Below, in pieces: positions 1,221-55,091 of a stretch of DNA of 64,000 nt. Position 1 is the stretch's first letter. Each line of letters starts with the position of its first letter. The translations under genes and the position numbers were made by a program. The notes under the pieces were generated by a model. The model did no database searches and was not told the origin of the DNA. It saw only the letters and a program-made list of their open reading frames with translations. The DNA is from a virus. The stretch is taken from UHGV virus genome UHGV-0033546. One strand, written 5' to 3'.

Positions 1221-2648
1221 CTAAAATTTTAATTCATTTGCCAAAGCATCTAACTGAGCTCGAGCGGATTCGTTTCTTTGATAGCGGTTCTGTTCAGCTT
1301 GAATCTGCTGTGAACCTGCTACTTCGTTCACTTCGGTTGGAGTAGAATCTTGTTCAATTTCTACCCATTTCTGATTTCCTTTTTGAACACCCATCAAAAA
1401 CTTATTCCATTTATTCTTATCACCATATCGTGATTTGATTTGCTTAATGAGTTGTTGTTCAGCAGCTGCTAACTCTTCAGTTTCAATGACCGCAAGCATA
1501 AAATCGGCTGTCGCTGGAAGACCAGCAGATTCTGCTATATCACTCATGTTAACATCAGAAGAGTCCCAAGCTTGTTTACCAACCTGCGCTGCAGTCCAAA
1601 GAACAGTTTCAGTTTCAACAGCCAGAGCACGTAATTCCTCTGCAATAGCTTTAACAGTTGTGTAACTATTTTCTGAATAAACTCGGATGCGGCACGATTT
1701 ACAAATACCTAGATAGTCGACAATAATGATTGTTGGAACAAAATTCTTCTTGAGCTTCAATTCATTCAAGAGAGACCTGAATGTGTTAGCATCTGCTCCA
1801 CCAGTAGGATACTGTTTAACAATTAAACGACCGAGAGTAGATTTCTCACGCCATTTTTCCATTTTTCCTTTATACTCAGCGTAAGAAATATGCCCATCAT
1901 CAATGTCATCAAGAGAAACATCAAGCATATTAGCATCAATGCGCTTAGCACAGACTTCTTCTGCCATTTCCATGGAAATGTAAAGAACATTATGTCCAAG
2001 CTGCAAATAATCTGCTGCTAATGAACACAATCCTAATGACTTACCAACGTTAACACCAGCCATTAAAACGTTCAGTGTTCCAGTCTCAGCTCCGCCTTTA
2101 GTAATTTTATTCAGAATTTTGAGTCTAAATGGAACCTTACGAGCTTTATTCATATAAGATAGCCAACGTGCTTCGTAGTCATCCATCCAATCATGGCCAA
2201 CGTAGCTATCAAATGAAATTGATAATGCTTGACGCATGATGTCAGGAATAGCACCTACATCTGGCATTTTCTTATTTCGTTTTTCCGGAGGAAGCTCAGC
2301 ATTGGTTTGAATTTCAATTATTTTAGACGTAGCATTAAACATCGCCCTTTGCTGAACATATTTTTCTGTTTCTTTTACTAACCAACTGTGGTCTTCCGGA
2401 GAATCAGCTAGTTTTGAAATAAGTGTTTTTACACCAGAATATTCTGTTTCAGTAAATGAACTATTTTCTAATGCAACATTTAACGCATTAATAGATGGAA
2501 CGCTATGGTACTCATTGACATGAGATTTAATTAATTTGAATGTATTTTTAGCTGGACCACTTTCAAAATATTCTGAATCCATATATGGCCAAACTTTTGA
2601 AAAATAAGCTTGATCAAATATGAGATGAGAAAGAATAATTTCTACCAC
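1221..2648 (-). CDS. 41: gp41 replicative DNA helicase (DnaB-like), 475 aa
   Basis: Walker A GVNVGKS, DnaB-family architecture, 475 aa; GTG start at 2648 with strong AAGGAG SD; matches T4 gp41 sequence as recalled. Confidence 0.93.
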   Translation of the reverse strand: MVEIILSHLIFDQAYFSKVWPYMDSEYFESGPAKNTFKLIKSHVNEYHSVPSINALNVALENSSFTETEYSGVKTLISKLADSPEDHSWLVKETEKYVQQRAMFNATSKIIEIQTNAELPPEKRNKKMPDVGAIPDIMRQALSISFDSYVGHDWMDDYEARWLSYMNKARKVPFRLKILNKITKGGAETGTLNVLMAGVNVGKSLGLCSLAADYLQLGHNVLYISMEMAEEVCAKRIDANMLDVSLDDIDDGHISYAEYKGKMEKWREKSTLGRLIVKQYPTGGADANTFRSLLNELKLKKNFVPTIIIVDYLGICKSCRIRVYSENSYTTVKAIAEELRALAVETETVLWTAAQVGKQAWDSSDVNMSDIAESAGLPATADFMLAVIETEELAAAEQQLIKQIKSRYGDKNKWNKFLMGVQKGNQKWVEIEQDSTPTEVNEVAGSQQIQAEQNRYQRNESARAQLDALANELKF

Positions 2649-2657
2649 ACTTACTCC

Positions 2658-3002
2658 TTAAAAGAATTTAAATTTTTTCTTTGACCTTTTATTAAATGCA
2701 TCTTGTAGTTGCATTGTAATACATTTTTCTACATGAGGAGCTAACTCAGCTTTTCTTTCTTGGTCAAGAACAGCAAAGTCCATTACAACCTTTCCATCAA
2801 CCCAATCTAATTTTGTCACATACACAATGTGTGTAGAACCATCTTCTAGTTTAATGACAATCTCCTGGATAACATTTTCCATGGCAGATTTAATTATCTT
2901 AAGAGATTCATTAAAAAGACGTTCTTTTCTTTCTTCTTCCCCCTCCGAAGAGGGGGATTCATCGATAATTTCTAGATCTAAATCTAAATCATCTTTATTC
3001 AT
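2658..3002 (-). CDS. 40: gp40-like head-assembly protein, 114 aa
   Basis: ORF between uvsX and 41; ATG at 3002 gives 114 aa and a short overlap with the uvsX stop. Confidence 0.6.
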   Translation of the reverse strand: MNKDDLDLDLEIIDESPSSEGEEERKERLFNESLKIIKSAMENVIQEIVIKLEDGSTHIVYVTKLDWVDGKVVMDFAVLDQERKAELAPHVEKCITMQLQDAFNKRSKKKFKFF

Positions 3003-4176
3003 TAAATTCTTCCATATCACTTAACTGATCTAGGTCAGTTTCTAAATCAGCTGCTGATTTACTTTTACTTTCTGGAGATTTAAATTTTTCAACCTTTGAG
3101 TTAATCAATTCATCAACTTCAGCTTCAACAATTTCATTACTATCAATAGCACCTAATTGATAAGCACGTTTAATAGCATCTCGGAATGGCTGATGCTTAA
3201 ATAAAGGACCCCAGAATGTAGTGCAGTTGGTATCTTTTGCACGCCAAGATTTTTCTTCGCGAATCATCTCGCCGGTTTCTTCGTCAAGAAATTCACGAGC
3301 ATACCAGCCATTTTTTGGTTTTACCACAAATCCTAATTCAAGAGCCATATCTAACAATCCAGAATAAGGATCGATACCACCGTCAAATTTAACATCAATA
3401 AAGAATTTACTTTTTTCTTTAACAGTACGAGATTTTTCTACATTTAGAACAAATTGATACCCCTGAAGATCAGAACCATCTTTAATCTGGCGCTTACCGA
3501 TAATGAATACAGTATCAGCCGAATACATTACGCCTGTACCACCTGTCATCACGGTTTTACTAAACATTTCAATTGTTTCAATTGTATGGTTAACCGCAAC
3601 ACATGGAATATTTTTAATGCTAAAATAAGGAGTAACAATACGGAATAATGACTTCAGCGATTTAGCACGAGTCATATCTGCCACAGATTTTTCATTCAAG
3701 GCATCTTCCGTTTCTTTCTTAGAAGCCATATTACCGATTGAGTCGATGAATACAATAACCTTTTCACCACGCTCAATAGCTTCAAGCTGATTCACCATAT
3801 CAATTTTCAGCTGTTCAACTGACTGGATTGGCGTATGAATTACTCGTTCCGGGTCAACACCCATGGATCGCAAATAAGCTGGAGTAATACCAAATTCGCT
3901 ATCATAAAATAGACAAACCGCGTCAGGATATTTGTTCAAATACGCCGCAACCATAGTCAAAGACATATTTGATTTAAAGTGTTTAGAAGGACCTGCAAAA
4001 ATGGTTAAACCAGACTGCATACCACCATCAATCGCACCAGAAATAGCGATATTAAGCATTGGGATTTTTGTGCGAATTACATCCTTTTCATTAAAGAATT
4101 TAGATGTAGTCAGTTCAGCAGTCATTTTAGAAGTGGAAGCTTTAATCAAACGGGATTTTAAATCTGCAATAGACAT
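2995..4176 (-). CDS. uvsX: UvsX RecA-like recombinase, 393 aa
   Basis: RecA fold with Walker A GPSKHFKS; near-identical to T4 UvsX N-terminus and C-terminal acidic tail as recalled. Confidence 0.95.
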   Translation of the reverse strand: MSIADLKSRLIKASTSKMTAELTTSKFFNEKDVIRTKIPMLNIAISGAIDGGMQSGLTIFAGPSKHFKSNMSLTMVAAYLNKYPDAVCLFYDSEFGITPAYLRSMGVDPERVIHTPIQSVEQLKIDMVNQLEAIERGEKVIVFIDSIGNMASKKETEDALNEKSVADMTRAKSLKSLFRIVTPYFSIKNIPCVAVNHTIETIEMFSKTVMTGGTGVMYSADTVFIIGKRQIKDGSDLQGYQFVLNVEKSRTVKEKSKFFIDVKFDGGIDPYSGLLDMALELGFVVKPKNGWYAREFLDEETGEMIREEKSWRAKDTNCTTFWGPLFKHQPFRDAIKRAYQLGAIDSNEIVEAEVDELINSKVEKFKSPESKSKSAADLETDLDQLSDMEEFNE

Positions 4177-4229
4177 TCATTTTTTCCATAGGCATCATTA
4201 TATTTTCCTCACTGGTTAAAGATAGAGTA

Positions 4230-4253
4230 ATTATAACACAATAAATTTAGGCA
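4230..4253 (-). promoter_or_regulatory. candidate MotA-dependent middle promoter for uvsX (MotA-box-like TGCCTAA at 4253-4247, -10 TATAAT at 4235-4230)
   Basis: Minus-strand reading of the uvsX upstream intergenic region; box is one mismatch from the TGCTT consensus; spacing about 12 nt. Confidence 0.3.
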
Positions 4254-5096
4254 TTAATCAACTGCTATTGGATGAATAGCATTAAACTTATGAAATGCTT
4301 CTGATTTTTCTTTACGCGAAACACACATACGAAGAACCTTTAATGGCTCGTCTTCTTCACCCAACGATTTTCGTTTTTCAATATTAGAAGTTTTCCAACG
4401 AGCTTGCTCTGGAAACTCTCTATTGATTTGCTCAAGAGCTCTATTATGTTTTGAATTACTACGAATTGAACTACACCCACCAGGAGCTTGTGCTTTTCCA
4501 GATACAACTAGATATTTGAACAAGGCCAAATGCGGATAACCTTGATTAATTAAATTGAGAAATGCATACATATCTTCGCATAAATCAATTTTTCCATACC
4601 CAATTTGTTCTGTGGTAAGTTTTCCTAAATCATACCATGTATTTGTGAATCCATATGAATTTTCACGATAATTACCCCAAGATGAAGTAATTTTAAAAAT
4701 TGGTAGACGAGCATGGCCATGATAATACCCGCAATCCATGGCATCTTCAACGTATTGAATCAATTCATAGAACTGTTCACGAGTTAATTGATTAATTTTA
4801 TCTACGCAGCGACGATCATCTTTCTTTCGCATTGAACTCATACGAATAGTAGTATCATCATCAATCATCCAAATTCGTTGACCTGCATACATATCAGTAA
4901 TTGCTTTACGAGTACCAGCAATTCCGTTAACATCATCAGGAATAGTTATAATTTTAGCTCTAGACCCGTAAGCGTCATAATAAGCTTTTTCTTCATGTTT
5001 ACGCACTACAATATGGGGTTCATAATCAGTCGGAAACATATCAAGGGCAGAAACTGCCCCGACACGCTGATAACTTGGAATTACGAATTGAATCAT
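4254..5096 (-). CDS. GT-A fold glycosyltransferase, 280 aa, at the locus occupied by beta-gt in T4 (possibly a beta-glucosyl-HMC-alpha-glucosyltransferase type enzyme)
   Basis: N-terminal FVIPSYQRVG strand and DDD (DxD) motif typical of GT-A enzymes; ATG at 5096 in ATGA overlap with gene 42 stop; 280 aa versus 351-aa T4 beta-gt and not alignable to it by eye. Confidence 0.55.
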   Translation of the reverse strand: MIQFVIPSYQRVGAVSALDMFPTDYEPHIVVRKHEEKAYYDAYGSRAKIITIPDDVNGIAGTRKAITDMYAGQRIWMIDDDTTIRMSSMRKKDDRRCVDKINQLTREQFYELIQYVEDAMDCGYYHGHARLPIFKITSSWGNYRENSYGFTNTWYDLGKLTTEQIGYGKIDLCEDMYAFLNLINQGYPHLALFKYLVVSGKAQAPGGCSSIRSNSKHNRALEQINREFPEQARWKTSNIEKRKSLGEEDEPLKVLRMCVSRKEKSEAFHKFNAIHPIAVD

Positions 5097-5833
5097 TTCC
5101 ACTCACCATTATAATCTTTTTTCGCAATATGAGTTTCGCCAGTATTCCACCAATGGTCAACCAAATAAAACTGATTTTCGTACACATGAAGACTTCCGAC
5201 ATTCCATATAATAGAACCTGCTTTATACTGTCGTGATGGGTCGCCTGCATTCAAATCAGATACTAATTTATCTAGTACGTATTTTTGCCACGCATAATCA
5301 TTACGATAGCCTGCCCAGCAGTCATTGCTTCTCATATTAACAACTGCATTGACTTTCTTATCACGAATCAGGTACTGTACTGTATTAGTACACATGAAAT
5401 CTGACATGCCGTCTTTGTTGTAGTCAAACTGCATAGATGGACGAGTATAAATCATGATACCACGCCGAGAATCAGGATTTTGACCAAGTTCAGCTAAACA
5501 CATATCATACTGGGCATAGTTATTTTCTGACCAGATAGCCCAACCATAATTCGAGTTAATTTCGCCTTTAGAAGATGCTACCTGCTGCCAAATCTTTGGT
5601 GTTTCACCTGGAATATCTTTAACAAACAAGCTCTTAGATTTATACCATTCAAGTTCACGCTGAATGTATTCATCATTAAGAGCGCCAAAAATAAACGGTT
5701 CATCTGCTACAAATGATGCGCCAATAATTTCAATAGTTTTAACACCAGTTTTATCAACTACGAAATCTTTTTCCTTTAATGCAAGCCCCAAATGAAGACG
5801 GATTTCTTCAACTGTCATAGAGTCACTAATCAT
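5093..5833 (-). CDS. 42: gp42 dCMP hydroxymethylase, 246 aa
   Basis: 246 aa; sequence from MISDSMTVEEIRLHLGLALKEKDF onward matches T4 gp42 as recalled. Confidence 0.92.
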   Translation of the reverse strand: MISDSMTVEEIRLHLGLALKEKDFVVDKTGVKTIEIIGASFVADEPFIFGALNDEYIQRELEWYKSKSLFVKDIPGETPKIWQQVASSKGEINSNYGWAIWSENNYAQYDMCLAELGQNPDSRRGIMIYTRPSMQFDYNKDGMSDFMCTNTVQYLIRDKKVNAVVNMRSNDCWAGYRNDYAWQKYVLDKLVSDLNAGDPSRQYKAGSIIWNVGSLHVYENQFYLVDHWWNTGETHIAKKDYNGEWK

Positions 5834-5986
5834 TTAAACCTCAATTGATACATTCATATTTAACTTGTAACAGTAATAAACTCCAACCTAAAATAATAGT
5901 TGGAATCATAAGAGGAACCGTTACACTATAGTATATACTTATTATAATCATCAAGATTAAAAGCAATGCTGCTATAATTTTGCTTT

Positions 5987-6238
5987 TCATTCCTTCTCTC
6001 TGATGATAATTACTTGATTTGGTTGTGCAGACTTTTTAGTTTCACCTGCAATTGACCAAATAAATGTAATAAACCAACCAATAATTGACCAATTAAACAG
6101 TAAAGATGTGAAAAAGATTCCTACTGTCGATTTTGACCCACGCATCAAGGCGATGAACCACGGAAGCATGTATATAATAATAGCCAACACGCCTGAAACT
6201 AAAACCATAAAAATTGAACCTGCTACTAAAGTTTCCAT
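5987..6238 (-). CDS. imm: Imm immunity (superinfection exclusion) membrane protein, 83 aa
   Basis: 83-aa protein with two hydrophobic segments immediately downstream of 43/imm.1, same size as T4 Imm. Confidence 0.75.
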   Translation of the reverse strand: METLVAGSIFMVLVSGVLAIIIYMLPWFIALMRGSKSTVGIFFTSLLFNWSIIGWFITFIWSIAGETKKSAQPNQVIIIREKE

Positions 6239-6245
6239 GTTTTCC

Positions 6246-6626
6246 TCACTTAGTCAAATTTTTTACACATGAATTATAAGAATTCACTACATACTCCATC
6301 GGAGCATTTTTACCAGTACGCCATTGGTAATTATTAGCCCAATTAGCCCAAAGTTCGGCACAGTAGTTTTCAATTTTTTCTTCGCGTGTAATTACATCTG
6401 AATTACGATATGCTTGAGCAGATTCATCTGGACGAATAGCCTCGTCAAAATTCGCCTGCATTTGTTCTACCGTCTGTTTTGGAGCTTCTTTATAACACTT
6501 GACGTTAGGATTATAAAACTTACTTGAACAGTTTACAATTTTTCCTACATCAGATTGATTTACTACCGGTCCTTGAGCTACACAACCAGTAAGACCCAAT
6601 GCAATAACTAAAATAGTGATTTTCAT
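6246..6626 (-). CDS. small lipoprotein (imm.1 position), about 126 aa
   Basis: ATG at 6626 with GGAG SD; lipobox LTGC in MKITILVIALGLTGC; the longer track ORF (to 6815) would run through the promoter and terminator. Confidence 0.5.
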   Translation of the reverse strand: MKITILVIALGLTGCVAQGPVVNQSDVGKIVNCSSKFYNPNVKCYKEAPKQTVEQMQANFDEAIRPDESAQAYRNSDVITREEKIENYCAELWANWANNYQWRTGKNAPMEYVVNSYNSCVKNLTK

Positions 6627-11529: not shown

Positions 11530-12215
11530 TAAAAATCATGGGTAGAATCAGCTTCAAGAGCTACTACATAATTCGCGTGTTCACCTTCAAATTTAGCAGC
11601 ACCTTGTTTACCTTTTGCCCAGAGCAGAAGTTTATAATTTCCTGGTTGCATTTTCATATTTGCCATATTGATAATGAAATTAAATGTATTTTCACCATCA
11701 TAATCACCAAGATTCAAAGAATATTTAACACGGGTCAGAGCAGAATCTTCTACTTTATTAAAACCGTTAATTACGATTTTACCTTCTTTTACCGTGATAG
11801 CAATTGTATCAATTTGCAGACCACGAGATACACGCAACAGTTGTTGAAGGTCTTCAGCTTTAATTTCAGTAACAACAGATGCTACCGGGAATGGAATTGG
11901 TTTATTAGGAGCAACTACTGTACTCGGATCGGCTGCTGGCCAAAAAATTGTTGAACGAGCATCAGCAATTTTAATATTTCCATCTTCTGATTGGGAAATT
12001 TCTGCATCATCATTAACTAGGGACAGAATACCGAGAAAACCGTTCAAATCGTAAATTGCTACATCAAAATCAATAGTGTCAGAAATATTTGCTTCCGCAT
12101 AAGTTGTACCATTAACTGCGCGAGTCATAATAAATTGACCAGATTTAAGCATAATACCGGAGTTAATAGTAGCGAAATTTTTCAAAATATTCAGTGTGTC
12201 TTTAGATAATTTCAT
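11529..12215 (-). CDS. 45: gp45 sliding clamp, 228 aa
   Basis: 228 aa; sequence matches T4 gp45 as recalled; ATGA overlap with upstream endonuclease-like ORF. Confidence 0.9.
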   Translation of the reverse strand: MKLSKDTLNILKNFATINSGIMLKSGQFIMTRAVNGTTYAEANISDTIDFDVAIYDLNGFLGILSLVNDDAEISQSEDGNIKIADARSTIFWPAADPSTVVAPNKPIPFPVASVVTEIKAEDLQQLLRVSRGLQIDTIAITVKEGKIVINGFNKVEDSALTRVKYSLNLGDYDGENTFNFIINMANMKMQPGNYKLLLWAKGKQGAAKFEGEHANYVVALEADSTHDF

Positions 12216-13099
12216 TTCAATTTCCTATTTACATAATAGTTAGACCAGGACCGTACAGCACCCTGATAAGATTCGTCGTTAAACCCATTAGCTACTGCAA
12301 TTTTACGAAATTTATTATAACTCGGTTTTCCGTAAGCATGCCATAAAGATTTTAATTCATCTTCATGTTCAATCCAAGTTCCTCTAGCTTTAGATTTTCT
12401 AAATTTTGATTTGAATTCCGGTGAATTATTTCTAACAGTTGCTTGAATTGAAGCTCTCTGTCTTCTTTCAGCATTATTCCATAACTCTTTTTGAGATTTA
12501 GAAATTTTTGATTTTACACTTTCTGAATTCATTATATCACTAAACTTTTTAGCATAACTGCAATCAAGATATTTCAATTTCATCTTATTTGAAAGTTTAA
12601 GCTTTTTCTCATCGGTCCAGTGATTCTTCATTGAATTAGATATTTTGTATTTTACGTCAGAACTATGTTTGTAACCTTTACGAATACCAACATAATCGGG
12701 CGTAATTTCAGATTGCGAAAGCTTTACAATTTTTCCAGTTAAAACATTTTTATATGTTCCATATCCTTTAGCGCCAATTAAAGTATTTTCATCTGCGTAT
12801 GCTTTATTAAAATATTTTATATTACTTTTTGCTTTAACTTTTAATTGAAAAAATCTTTCCAATTTTCTTGGATCTAATATAGTTTCAGCTAAAATTTTGA
12901 CGGTATATTTAGTGGTTTTAATAAGCTCAAAATATTCATCGCTATAACTCGATGACACGCTTCCAGTATAAATCTTTCCAGCTGAATCAATTATATTTGT
13001 TCCATCGAAAATTGCGTCAATTTTCGAACCTATATAATAACATGGAAAAATATTTTTAGCTTCCCGCTCTGGAAAGCTAATAAGATATACTAAATTCAT
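12212..13099 (-). CDS. free-standing homing-endonuclease-like protein (degenerate GIY-YIG-like N-terminus plus C-terminal DNA-binding module), 295 aa
   Basis: N-terminal VYLIS...(12 aa)...YYIGS resembles the GIY-X10-12-YIG spacing but lacks an obvious catalytic Arg; C-terminal 110 aa homologous to the C-terminus of the HNH ORF at 15437-16291; ATGA overlaps with rpbA stop and 45 start. Confidence 0.5.
12212..13099 (-). mobile_element. putative homing-endonuclease gene insertion between rpbA and 45
   Basis: Endonuclease-like ORF wedged between two conserved replication/transcription genes with precise translational coupling. Confidence 0.4.
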
Positions 13100-15436: not shown

Positions 15437-16291
15437 TCACAATGAAGAAAATTCTTTAACTAAAGCCTGTAATGAAGCCTCTATTGGATATCCATTCTTA
15501 ACTAACATTTTCCTAAACATCACATGTTTAGGACGATTATATGATATCCACAATTCATACAATTTATCTTTATTATCCCAATGATAGCCTTTTCGTCGAG
15601 ATGCTATATGAGCTTTTCTAATCTCCGGATTTTTCCAACTAGCAGCTACTGAATTTAATATAGCTATTTTATATTCAGGTTTTGATAAAGCAGCACGAAC
15701 AGCCTTTTGGTGTTTAATTTTATTTTCTTCGTTATTAAACCATTCCCTTGAAGCCATTGAAATTTTTTGTTTTGTTTTAAAATTATTTAATCTTTCTTTG
15801 TTATCTTTCCTATTTTTTGCTACTGAAAAATATTTTAATGCCCTTTCTCTAGCAACATTTCTATTTTGTGGATTTGAATAATACTGTTGAAGCCTTTTTG
15901 ATATTGTGTCACTTACATCCTGTCTTATAAAACTATATTCAGCAGCTATTAAATCAACTTCGGCTAAAGATAAATTTTTATATGTTTTTCCTGACATCAT
16001 TCTATTTAAAGCATTTAGCATTTTTCCATTTTTACCTTTTGCTAATAAGAAATGTGCTTTGAAATGATTAAAATGACTTAAATTAACTAAATTCCATGTA
16101 GATTTTAAATATTCAGGAAATATTGATTTAGGAAGCACGTGGTGTGCTTCCGTTTTACCTGGAGTTTTAACAGTTGAATTCATAGAAATAAAATTAATAT
16201 AAGACTTGGCGTCTTCTTCACTCAACGCTAATTTTTCAACTAATTCCTTTATTAAAAATTCATCATTAATATCAAGTTTAAAATTCTTCAC
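15437..16291 (-). CDS. HNH homing endonuclease (mob-like), 284 aa
   Basis: HNH signature AHHVLPKS...WNLVNLS...HFNHFKAH near N-terminus; basic repeat-rich C-terminus; GTG start at 16291 overlapping upstream stop. Confidence 0.65.
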   Translation of the reverse strand: MKNFKLDINDEFLIKELVEKLALSEEDAKSYINFISMNSTVKTPGKTEAHHVLPKSIFPEYLKSTWNLVNLSHFNHFKAHFLLAKGKNGKMLNALNRMMSGKTYKNLSLAEVDLIAAEYSFIRQDVSDTISKRLQQYYSNPQNRNVARERALKYFSVAKNRKDNKERLNNFKTKQKISMASREWFNNEENKIKHQKAVRAALSKPEYKIAILNSVAASWKNPEIRKAHIASRRKGYHWDNKDKLYELWISYNRPKHVMFRKMLVKNGYPIEASLQALVKEFSSL

Positions 16292-17914: not shown

Positions 17915-17932
17915 AAAGGGCCGAAGCCCTTT
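17915..17932 (-). terminator. hairpin with UUCG tetraloop overlapping a-gt stop
   Basis: + strand AAAGGGC-CGAA-GCCCTTT; 7-bp stem. Confidence 0.45.
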
Positions 17933-19133
17933 ATTTTGTAATAATGTCAAACTGTTCTTTAAAGCAGAAGCTTGAATCTTGATGCTGATACAAAAATTCA
18001 TAAGCTTTTTCTCGCTCACGGTCATAAAGAGCTCGGTCAGATGACAGTTCTTTAATACGCTCGAATGTCGATTCCATGTCATTTTCGTCAAACCAAACGA
18101 TACCGCTATCATGAGAAATTAACGGAGTATTATCAACACGGAATTTTAAATTTTCGCCAGTAGATTTCCAAAATACCGGAATTGTTCCACACGCTCCAAG
18201 CTCGAGATGAGTATATTCTAAAGAACGTTGTAGATATTTTTTGTCCAACTTACTCAACTGATAACCAAAACCGGATTTACTCATGCGTTCAAGCATTTCG
18301 CTATTTACATAACGATCAAGAATTTGCGTTGGCAAATTAGGAGCAATTTTAATTTGGTCTACTTGATGAAGACGATAATACTCGTATGGAATTCCTTTTT
18401 CTTTAATAGGAATGAACGCTGGAGAACGTTCCAGACCTTCCATAATAGTACTTAGCCCAGCAGGTTTAAGATGTTTTTCGTGGAAATCAAACATCTGATA
18501 AAAACCTTTCCATGTAGTCGTACGACCAATCCAACGATTGACATTCATGTTAATTTTAGAAACATCTTTCCAGTAGGTTGATCGAACCTTCGCAATATCC
18601 ATAGGAGGCTGAAAGTTGTATACAGTCGGTGCTTCTTCAATATCATCAAACAGAGAAACCGTTTCTGGATACCATTCTTTCATCAAAACTTTATTAAAAT
18701 CGCCATTATCAGAATGACTAAAAATAACATCAGCTCGACGAACAGTTTCTTCTAATCCCAAATTTCGACGCAAAGAAAGAGAAGAATGGTCATGTTGATA
18801 AACTACAACACGAACCGAAGGTTTAATGTTATCAATAATTTTTTTATAGTTATTAATAGTGTCTTCTTCGACTGAAGTAGCAGGAACTGAATTGATAATT
18901 AGAATATCACAATCATTTACCAGCTTAAGCGTTTTATCATATTCTTTTGCCAATAAAACCGGAATTGAAAATGATTTATAATCATGTGCGCAATTACGAG
19001 TAAATGATTTATCTTTAGCATAAACCAAAGTTACTTCATGACCATTTTTAATAAACCAATCACGTTGCTCGAGAGAAAATTTAGTTACACCACAACCTTC
19101 AAGACCCCGAGCCATAAAAATACATACTTTCAT
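17931..19133 (-). CDS. a-gt: alpha-glucosyltransferase (DNA hmC alpha-glucosylation), 400 aa
   Basis: 400 aa; sequence close to T4 alpha-gt as recalled. Confidence 0.9.
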   Translation of the reverse strand: MKVCIFMARGLEGCGVTKFSLEQRDWFIKNGHEVTLVYAKDKSFTRNCAHDYKSFSIPVLLAKEYDKTLKLVNDCDILIINSVPATSVEEDTINNYKKIIDNIKPSVRVVVYQHDHSSLSLRRNLGLEETVRRADVIFSHSDNGDFNKVLMKEWYPETVSLFDDIEEAPTVYNFQPPMDIAKVRSTYWKDVSKINMNVNRWIGRTTTWKGFYQMFDFHEKHLKPAGLSTIMEGLERSPAFIPIKEKGIPYEYYRLHQVDQIKIAPNLPTQILDRYVNSEMLERMSKSGFGYQLSKLDKKYLQRSLEYTHLELGACGTIPVFWKSTGENLKFRVDNTPLISHDSGIVWFDENDMESTFERIKELSSDRALYDREREKAYEFLYQHQDSSFCFKEQFDIITK

Positions 19134-53308: not shown

Positions 53309-53596
53309 TTACAAAAGATTTTTAGCAATAATCTTGAGATGTGCTGCAGAAATGTGTTTAGCTTTAAACAACGCAGTTTCTTCAGCAGGAGAGATAACGA
53401 TTGTAGCACCATCCTTTTTAGCAGACCACCCATCACCTAGGTAAACAGTACCTTTGATTTCTTCGCCATCAACCAGACTAATCATTGGTTTACCTTCTCG
53501 TCCTTTATTTGCTTTAATAACTTCAGAAGTAAGAGTAGCCTCGGTAATGGTAGAAACCGGGGTAGTTGTAGAAGTAAATTCTTTGAAAGTTTTCAT
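53309..53596 (-). CDS. ipI: internal protein I (IPI), 95 aa precursor with capsid-targeting leader
   Basis: 95 aa; leader MKTFKEF...; body ...ATLTSEVIKANKGREGKPMISLVDGEEIKGTVYLGDGW matches T4 IPI as recalled; position next to 57B. Confidence 0.7.
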   Translation of the reverse strand: MKTFKEFTSTTTPVSTITEATLTSEVIKANKGREGKPMISLVDGEEIKGTVYLGDGWSAKKDGATIVISPAEETALFKAKHISAAHLKIIAKNLL

Positions 53597-54366: not shown

Positions 54367-55091
54367 TATAGTACCTTTAGTGTATTTTTAATTTTAGAAA
54401 AAAGTTCTTCAAGAGAACCATCGTTTGTAATTACTAAATCACCATCACGAATTGGCAATCCAGCTTCTGTAATATGTGTATCATTGGATTTTTGACCAGG
54501 ACGAACTACATGAATTACTGTAGCACCCATCGCCCTAGCCGCATCCATTTCATGATCTTGACGAGTATCAGGAACGATATAATAATCATAACCTGAATTA
54601 AATTTATCAAGATAATCTAAAGCAAATAATTTTACCCAATACATGCGGTCGAAGTTATTAACAATCAAATCCGTACCTAGGGCTTGCATCAGACGACGGA
54701 CTGACCATTGATCTTCAATATTATTTATAACGTCAATAATCTTGTTAAATGCTACGGAATTAACTGATTCTTGTCCTTCGTCATCAAAAACAAACACACC
54801 CTTAATTGGGCTTTTACCGTTAAGATAGCAAAATGCTTGTTCCATAATCGTGATTACTTCTAATTTAGTCAGATTTAAATTAGTCTCACGATCATAGTCA
54901 ATTCCTTCAAACTCTTTACGAGTCAAGCAAGGATAGTCAGTGTTTGCTGCAAATACAGCCCATGCATAAGCCAATGCATCCTTAATCGGACCAGCAAGTT
55001 GGTATTTAACTGCAGAATAACTGTTCATAATAAAATCAGCAGTAGTATCTTTTCCACTACGCTTTACACCGCTTAAAAAGATTAATTTCAT
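54366..55091 (-). CDS. 1: gp1 deoxynucleoside monophosphate kinase, 241 aa
   Basis: ATG at 55091 (MKLIFLSGVKRSGKDTT), P-loop GVKRSGKDT; matches T4 gp1. Confidence 0.9.

Follow-up and report, generated by a model that had tools for sequence, protein, structure and literature searches.

Single alpha-gt mutants of the coliphages T2 and T6 have non-glucosylated DNA. The second transferase of these phages, beta-glucosyl-HMC-alpha-glucosyltransferase (here ba-gt; also named g-gt, ggt or TAGT, for TET-associated glycosyltransferase), is a 280-aa enzyme with a GT-A fold and a DxD motif, which is encoded between uvsX and gene 42 and has alpha-gt as its partner. Gentiobiosyl-hmC accounts for ~5% in T2 and ~72% in T6, with ~25% of the hmC left bare in both phages (PMC6024577; bioRxiv 10.64898/2026.02.25.707755), and deletion of ba-gt from T6 gives alpha-glucosyl-hmC only (PMC11078745). 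LC-MS on ten Tequatrovirus isolates (Durham) carrying alpha-GT and TAGT and lacking beta-GT detected 5-hmdC and its alpha-glucosyl and alpha-gentiobiosyl forms, with no beta-glucosyl form; vB_Eco_Some was among the isolates measured (PMC13390438).

T4 carries a different enzyme, b-gt (351 aa, family PF09198), at the same position between uvsX and gene 42. The two enzymes share the beta linkage that they form and hmC-containing DNA as their ultimate substrate, whereas the acceptor of b-gt is bare hmC and that of ba-gt is the 6-OH of alpha-glucosyl-hmC; the T4 enzyme has a GT-B fold (PMC13216743). A third type, ORF003c or Aat of RB69 and the Mosigvirus phages, is likewise a phage DNA sugar transferase acting on modified cytosine in T4-like phages, and differs from the enzyme described below in both locus and sugar. 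In the RB collection, Thomas et al. (2018) found a-gt together with ba-gt in twelve phages and the T4 pair only in RB55 and RB59 (PMC6024577). Indeed, alpha-gt with ba-gt is the majority state and the alpha/beta pair of T4 the rare one, as published in 2018 and 2026 (PMC6024577; PMC13216743).

We analyzed a 64-kb stretch of phage DNA, here called the window, from a T4-like coliphage genome of the genus Tequatrovirus. The first 25 kb of the window are ~96-97% identical to hundreds of records of Escherichia, Shigella, Salmonella and Yersinia phages. The gene order is 41-40-uvsX-[ba-gt]-42-imm-43-regA-62-44-45-...-46-47-a-gt-55-nrdG-nrdD, and the features relevant here are the following.

2995..4176, minus strand: uvsX recombinase, the downstream flank, given for context only (Pfam T4_UVSX_C 4.7e-39 and RecA 2.4e-11; synteny with T2, T4 and T6)
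4254..5096, minus strand: ba-gt (g-gt / ggt / TAGT), 280-aa beta-glucosyl-HMC-alpha-glucosyltransferase (ORF, family matches and model)
5093..5833, minus strand: gene 42, dCMP hydroxymethylase, source of the hmC precursor (Pfam Thymidylat_synt 5.7e-15; the syntenic gene is so annotated in T2, T4 and T6)
5841-5990, minus strand: hydrophobic ORF of 49 aa in the gap between gene 42 and imm (PHROG 3610, 1.2e-25)
12212-13099, minus strand: free-standing homing-endonuclease-like ORF of 295 aa between gene 45 and rpbA (PHROG 655, 3e-32)
15437-16291, minus strand: free-standing homing-endonuclease-like ORF of 284 aa between genes 46 and 47 (PHROG 655, 1.2e-44, and an HNH PHROG)
17931..19133, minus strand: alpha-gt, 400-aa DNA alpha-glucosyltransferase (Pfam AGT 2.3e-235; PHROG 2888, 2.5e-221; 90.5% identity to T4 a-gt)
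53312..53596, minus strand: ipI, internal protein I, precursor of IPI* (tblastn with T4 IPI, 100% over 95 aa)
54369..55091, minus strand: gene 1, dNMP kinase, the enzyme phosphorylating hm-dCMP on the hmC pathway (tblastn with T4 gp1, 97.5% over 241 aa; function according to the T4 annotation)

The gene at 4254..5096 on the minus strand is, with a probability of about 0.93, the T2/T6-type beta-glucosyl-HMC-alpha-glucosyltransferase of a Tequatrovirus (T4-like coliphage), making gentiobiosyl-hmC after alpha-gt has acted. The gene, its product, fold, locus and distribution have all been published already. By tblastn against phage records, the protein is 100% identical to the product of a Salmonella phage Lv5cm gene. 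The comparison with the T2 and T6 enzymes proposed in the initial annotation gave 98.2% identity (5 aa differences) to the T2 protein annotated "b-gt: beta-glucosyl-HMC-alpha-glucosyl-transferase" (LC348380) and 97.5% (7 aa differences, by direct comparison) to T6 ggt; identity to the vB_Eco_Some enzyme is also 98.2%. The protein matches PHROG 842, "beta-glucosyl-HMC-alpha-glucosyltransferase", at 1.1e-88, and Pfam PF20691 (TAGT) over profile positions 2-205 of 205, where its 38.3 bits exceed the gathering cut-off of 27.5. Scores beyond the family-model thresholds, taken with the near-identity to the T2 and T6 proteins, place it among the ba-gt enzymes of these phages. Its departures are point differences only: K33, K92 and I101 set it apart from both T2 and T6, it has R11 and P251 as in T6 and not T2, and Y40, D55 and R106 as in T2 and not T6.

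The position of the 280-aa ORF between uvsX and gene 42, as described in the initial annotation, was borne out by Pfam matches and synteny of the flanking genes, and so was its statement that T4 has the 351-aa beta-gt there, with the addition that the T4 locus also has the homing endonuclease segA, which the window locus lacks. A mechanical ORF list opens the frame at a GTG (4254..5102, minus strand, 282 aa); starting from the ATG at 5096, the product has 280 aa and its N-terminus reads MIQFVIPSYQRVG..., with the motif FVIPSYQRVG at residues 4-13 and DDD at residues 79-81. A Shine-Dalgarno-like stretch, GGTGAG, lies a few bases upstream of this ATG, which overlaps the TGA stop of gene 42 as ATGA (5093-5096). 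The same four-base overlap is annotated in T2 (LC348380; gene 42 at 2264-3004, b-gt at 3001-3843), and phages Geo, EL, CP and Some have the layout of the window, with ba-gt between uvsX and gene 42 and overlapping gene 42. The placement of the gene is thus that of the T2 and T6 enzymes.

Chance can be dismissed as the origin of such an ORF: a homologue is encoded in 690 phage records, and the codons that differ from the T2 gene (37 nucleotide differences) are synonymous in 30 cases and non-synonymous in 5. These synonymous and non-synonymous counts show purifying selection on an intact gene. Scanning 3900-6300 for promoters and terminators gave no excess over shuffled sequence (promoter-like sites, 14 with 10.9 expected; terminator-like sites, 1 with 1.1 expected). 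The single terminator-like site, at 5044-5060 on the minus strand, is a hairpin with a GC-rich stem of 7 bp (GGGGCAG TTT CTGCCCT) and a T-rich run after it; it lies in the ba-gt coding sequence, within the first 50 nt.

Searching the PDB by sequence returned chance matches only (E>=0.75). As no relative with a solved structure was found in this way, the evidence on the fold was taken from a model. A word-indexed protein search gave 11 relatives and an exhaustive HMMER search 333 representative homologues, and it was on the latter that both alignment and model were based. The AlphaFold2 model has a mean pLDDT of 93.5 and a pTM of 0.92, and its top Foldseek matches in the PDB are GT-A enzymes of family GT2, namely K4CP chondroitin polymerase, AvpGT, WrtF, RmlT and TarS (E ~2e-6 to 7e-6, TM ~0.5). 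A fold search, which the initial annotation had named as a possible refutation, therefore came out as a glycosyltransferase, and as the GT-A type with a DDD motif that had been read from the sequence. Similarly, a published AF3 model of the T6 TAGT clusters as a sister group to GT2, with which the model of the window protein agrees (PMC13216743).

In an alignment of 46 TAGT members, I6, R11, D80, D175, G186 and G207 are invariant and P7, E35, D79, D81, G206, R212 and P229 reach at least 90% conservation; the window protein keeps every one of these residues. GT-A fold, DxD motif and invariant residues are thus together those of the T2/T6 family. The mechanism would be metal-dependent and inverting, the latter because a beta linkage is formed from UDP-alpha-glucose, with D79-D81 (DxD) probably binding the metal and UDP. 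C173-E174-D175 (CED) is the likely counterpart of the GT2 "TED" motif, E174 or D175 being the putative catalytic base. The cellular GT-A enzymes of family GT2 (TarS, TarP, K4CP, SpsA, BcsA, WrtF) share 8-15% sequence identity with ba-gt and act on polysaccharide, teichoic acid or lipid, whereas the acceptor of ba-gt is a sugar on duplex DNA; ba-gt also differs from them at its C-terminus, where it has a tail and a GGCSxxR motif specific to the family.

The genes that would supply the acceptor, alpha-gt, gene 42 and gene 1, co-occur with ba-gt in the window, and the retention of a 400-aa alpha-gt, noted in the initial annotation, was confirmed. Gene 42 would make hm-dCMP, gene 1 would phosphorylate it, and hm-dCTP would enter the DNA in place of cytosine. 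After replication, alpha-gt would add an alpha-linked glucose to most hmC, and ba-gt, using UDP-glucose, would then attach a second glucose through a beta-1,6 bond to the first, yielding gentiobiosyl-hmC. This beta-1,6 chemistry on alpha-glucosyl-hmC is carried over from orthologues that are 97-98% identical. By the same analogy, the expected DNA would contain alpha-glucosyl-hmC, gentiobiosyl-hmC and bare hmC, the last at roughly a quarter to a third of the total because a T4-type beta-gt that could fill the sites missed by alpha-gt is lacking in the window. The initial annotation had likewise predicted an alpha-linked glucose with a second sugar added to it, and the literature supports this pattern for T2, T6 and Tequatrovirus phages with the same gene pair (PMC6024577, PMC11078745, PMC13390438).

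The alpha-gt gene itself occurs as two alleles that are ~90% identical. The window has the common one (283 records at least 99% identical), and T4, T6 and vB_Eco_Geo share the other. We considered the alpha-gt allele as a determinant of the gentiobiosyl level and rejected it, as Geo (intermediate level) and T6 (high level) have the same T4-like allele and no pattern appears.

Two other activities of the enzyme were weighed. The position of ba-gt is that of beta-gt, and distant TAGT homologues are found by themselves in 288 of 753 phage genomes lacking alpha- or beta-GT, which makes other acceptors possible for some of the family (PMC13216743); the window enzyme could on these grounds be a primary transferase that modifies bare hmC directly and does the work of the T4 beta-gt. 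We consider this very improbable, given the 97-98% identity to the T2 and T6 enzymes. In addition, T6 escaping Brig1 carry inactivating a-gt mutations and the ba-gt deletion has alpha-glucosyl-only DNA (PMC11078745), and in phages with the gene pair ~25-33% of the hmC is bare and beta-glucosyl-hmC was not detected (PMC13390438). Nor is the protein a T4 beta-glucosyltransferase (GT-B, PF09198): a candidate of this kind was rejected on the lack of tblastn similarity, the GT-A model and the absence of a PF09198 match in the protein. As a GT-A fold does not reveal sugar specificity, and as arabinosyl and arabinobiosyl modifications exist in related phages (PMC13390438, PMC6024577), the enzyme might also transfer a different sugar, such as the arabinose of RB69 and Mosigvirus, and so build a new disaccharide. 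This is extremely improbable, since gentiobiosyl-hmC has been measured in phages whose enzymes are 98% identical to that of the window (PMC13390438); moreover, the RB69 candidate (ORF003c/Aat) is a 366-aa protein predicted to be GT-B, against 280 aa and GT-A in the window, and BlastP with the T2 ba-gt found no RB69 homologue (PMC6024577). On size, fold and this published search, the RB69-type arabinosyltransferase that the initial annotation had listed for comparison was excluded. The beta-glucosyl-HMC-alpha-glucosyltransferase assignment is accordingly the one retained below.

How much gentiobiosyl-hmC such an enzyme makes is a separate matter. Among enzymes at least 97% identical, the gentiobiosyl fraction is ~5% in T2, ~40% in Geo, EL and BGP, and ~65-72% in T6, Some and CP (PMC13390438), the ratio of bare hmC to alpha-glucosyl to gentiobiosyl being ~1:2:2 in Geo, EL and BGP. 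Because the fraction runs from ~5% to ~72% at this degree of identity, the level is not readable from sequence. We compared the window protein residue by residue with the seven reference enzymes whose DNA composition is known (T2, Geo, EL, BGP, CP, Some and T6). Among these references, T2 alone has H11 and S251, and across 684 records H11 is confined to the T2 records and SV76 (8 in all). Codon 11 of the T2 gene (LC348380, 3001-3843) reads His, against Arg in all 46 aligned family members. V50, I89, K95, R97, I101, S202 and H203 are common to the intermediate group (Geo, EL, BGP). Apart from K33, K92 and I101, all variable residues of the window protein agree with the high group (CP, Some, T6); relative to the seven references, K33 and K92 are private to it and I101 is shared with the intermediate group. 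With only moderate confidence, we therefore expect a T6-like or intermediate gentiobiosyl level rather than a T2-like one.

A T2-like outcome, in which ba-gt is present and weak and the DNA is essentially mono-alpha-glucosylated with a few per cent of gentiobiosyl-hmC, has in its favor that the T2 gene is 98% identical and yet gives ~5% (PMC6024577), that K33 and K92 are private substitutions, and that both public T6 records have lesions in ba-gt, which suggests that the gene is dispensable in the laboratory. We judge it unlikely: both T2-specific residues, H11 at the family-invariant arginine site and S251, are absent from the window, the protein otherwise equals the high group apart from K33, K92 and I101, and 110 records carry a gene at least 99% identical to it. 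As the window keeps the invariant R11, replaced by H only in T2, a high, T6-like fraction can be suggested. The R11H change of T2 could cause the difference between T2 (~5%) and T6 (~72%), and the window enzyme might then make mainly gentiobiosyl-hmC, giving T6-like DNA; this is a tentative proposal, at somewhat less than even odds. It concerns the enzyme family, and the window itself is not made new by it.

The lesions in the two T6 records are of different kinds. In MH550421 (4138-4980, minus strand) codon 10 is an amber codon (CAG to TAG) and the gene is annotated from M20 as 261 aa; in AP018814 (901-1740) one Asp codon of the DDD (DxD) is missing, leaving 279 aa. The window gene has neither the amber codon nor the DDD-to-DD deletion. 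These lesions could be stock variants or sequencing errors, and in either case the two records are unsuitable as clean references for the T6 enzyme.

No homologue of the T4 b-gt was found anywhere in the 64-kb window by tblastn (E<=1e-3), and the segA query turned up a single weak match (27% identity), which lies within the homing-endonuclease-like ORF at 12212-13099. By contrast with the view of a replaced beta-gt, ba-gt is at least 90% identical in ~473 phage records (110 at 99% or more and 362 at 95-99%), with distant homologues in ~217 more, against only 29 phage records in which a b-gt of the T4 type reaches 90% identity. The initial annotation was thus right that a different glycosyltransferase occupies the beta-gt locus, and this is not an unusual replacement.

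In some Enterobacter, Salmonella and Serratia T4-like phages, a beta-gt homologue (~50% identical to T4) adjoins a TAGT homologue (~65% identical to the window), as in Enterobacter phage myPSH1140 (NC_055739, 23578-24651 and 24657-25478). Such pairing of beta-GT and TAGT has been noted before (PMC6024577, PMC13216743). The window covers only 64 kb of the genome, which leaves a beta-gt elsewhere as a remote possibility; in the two phages of this Enterobacter, Salmonella and Serratia set for which both positions were determined, however, beta-gt is at the ba-gt locus or next to it, and this is likewise its locus in the T4 record examined.

Several other observations were made in the window. Neither of the two homing-endonuclease-like ORFs (12212-13099 and 15437-16291) has a Pfam match; T4 has no gene at either position, and T6 has an ORF of the same size (855 nt) at the 46/47 position. 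For the 49-aa ORF at 5841-5990, at least 47 of the 49 residues are identically encoded in the gap between 42 and imm of T4, where RefSeq NC_000866 annotates nothing. The internal-protein set differs from that of T4: by tblastn, T4 ipII has only a weak match in the window (33% identity) and ipIII has none.

The same 280-aa GT-A protein carries several wrong names in public records, and the gene at 4254..5096 should be named ba-gt or TAGT. The protein is labelled beta-glucosyltransferase in Sf24 and SH7, alpha-glucosyl-transferase in Ge15, or hypothetical protein, and in APTC-EC-2A no feature under the ba-gt match is named a glycosyltransferase. Conversely, the T4-type 351-aa b-gt of RB55 is labelled beta-glucosyl-HMC-alpha-glucosyl-transferase.

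The initial annotation had further expected an altered sensitivity to glucose-dependent type IV restriction enzymes, and here the literature does not bear it out: GmrSD and BrxU, a member of the GmrSD family, are reported to attack DNA whether it carries alpha-glucosyl, beta-glucosyl or gentiobiosyl groups (PMC13216743, PMC13326640, PMC13390438). [quoted passage not shown] The second glucose is therefore of documented benefit against two enzymes, the glycosylase Brig1 and the deglucosylase BapA, and by analogy this benefit would extend to the window phage (PMC11078745; bioRxiv 10.64898/2026.02.25.707755). Phages without beta-gt pay for this with residual bare 5hmC, which in T2- and T6-type DNA is a target of the Brig3 glycosylase (PMC11078745; bioRxiv 10.64898/2026.02.25.707755).

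IPI* is an injected inhibitor of the GmrSD-type restriction of glucosylated DNA (PMC13216743, PMC13326640), and GmrSD and BrxU would still cut DNA of the window type unless IPI* blocks them. If the R11H proposal is true, the phage, with an IPI identical to that of T4, would have a shield against defences of the Brig1/BapA type as well as of the GmrSD type. For phage biology and therapy, the pair of alpha-gt and ba-gt predicts the chemistry of the DNA, affecting which defences a phage meets.
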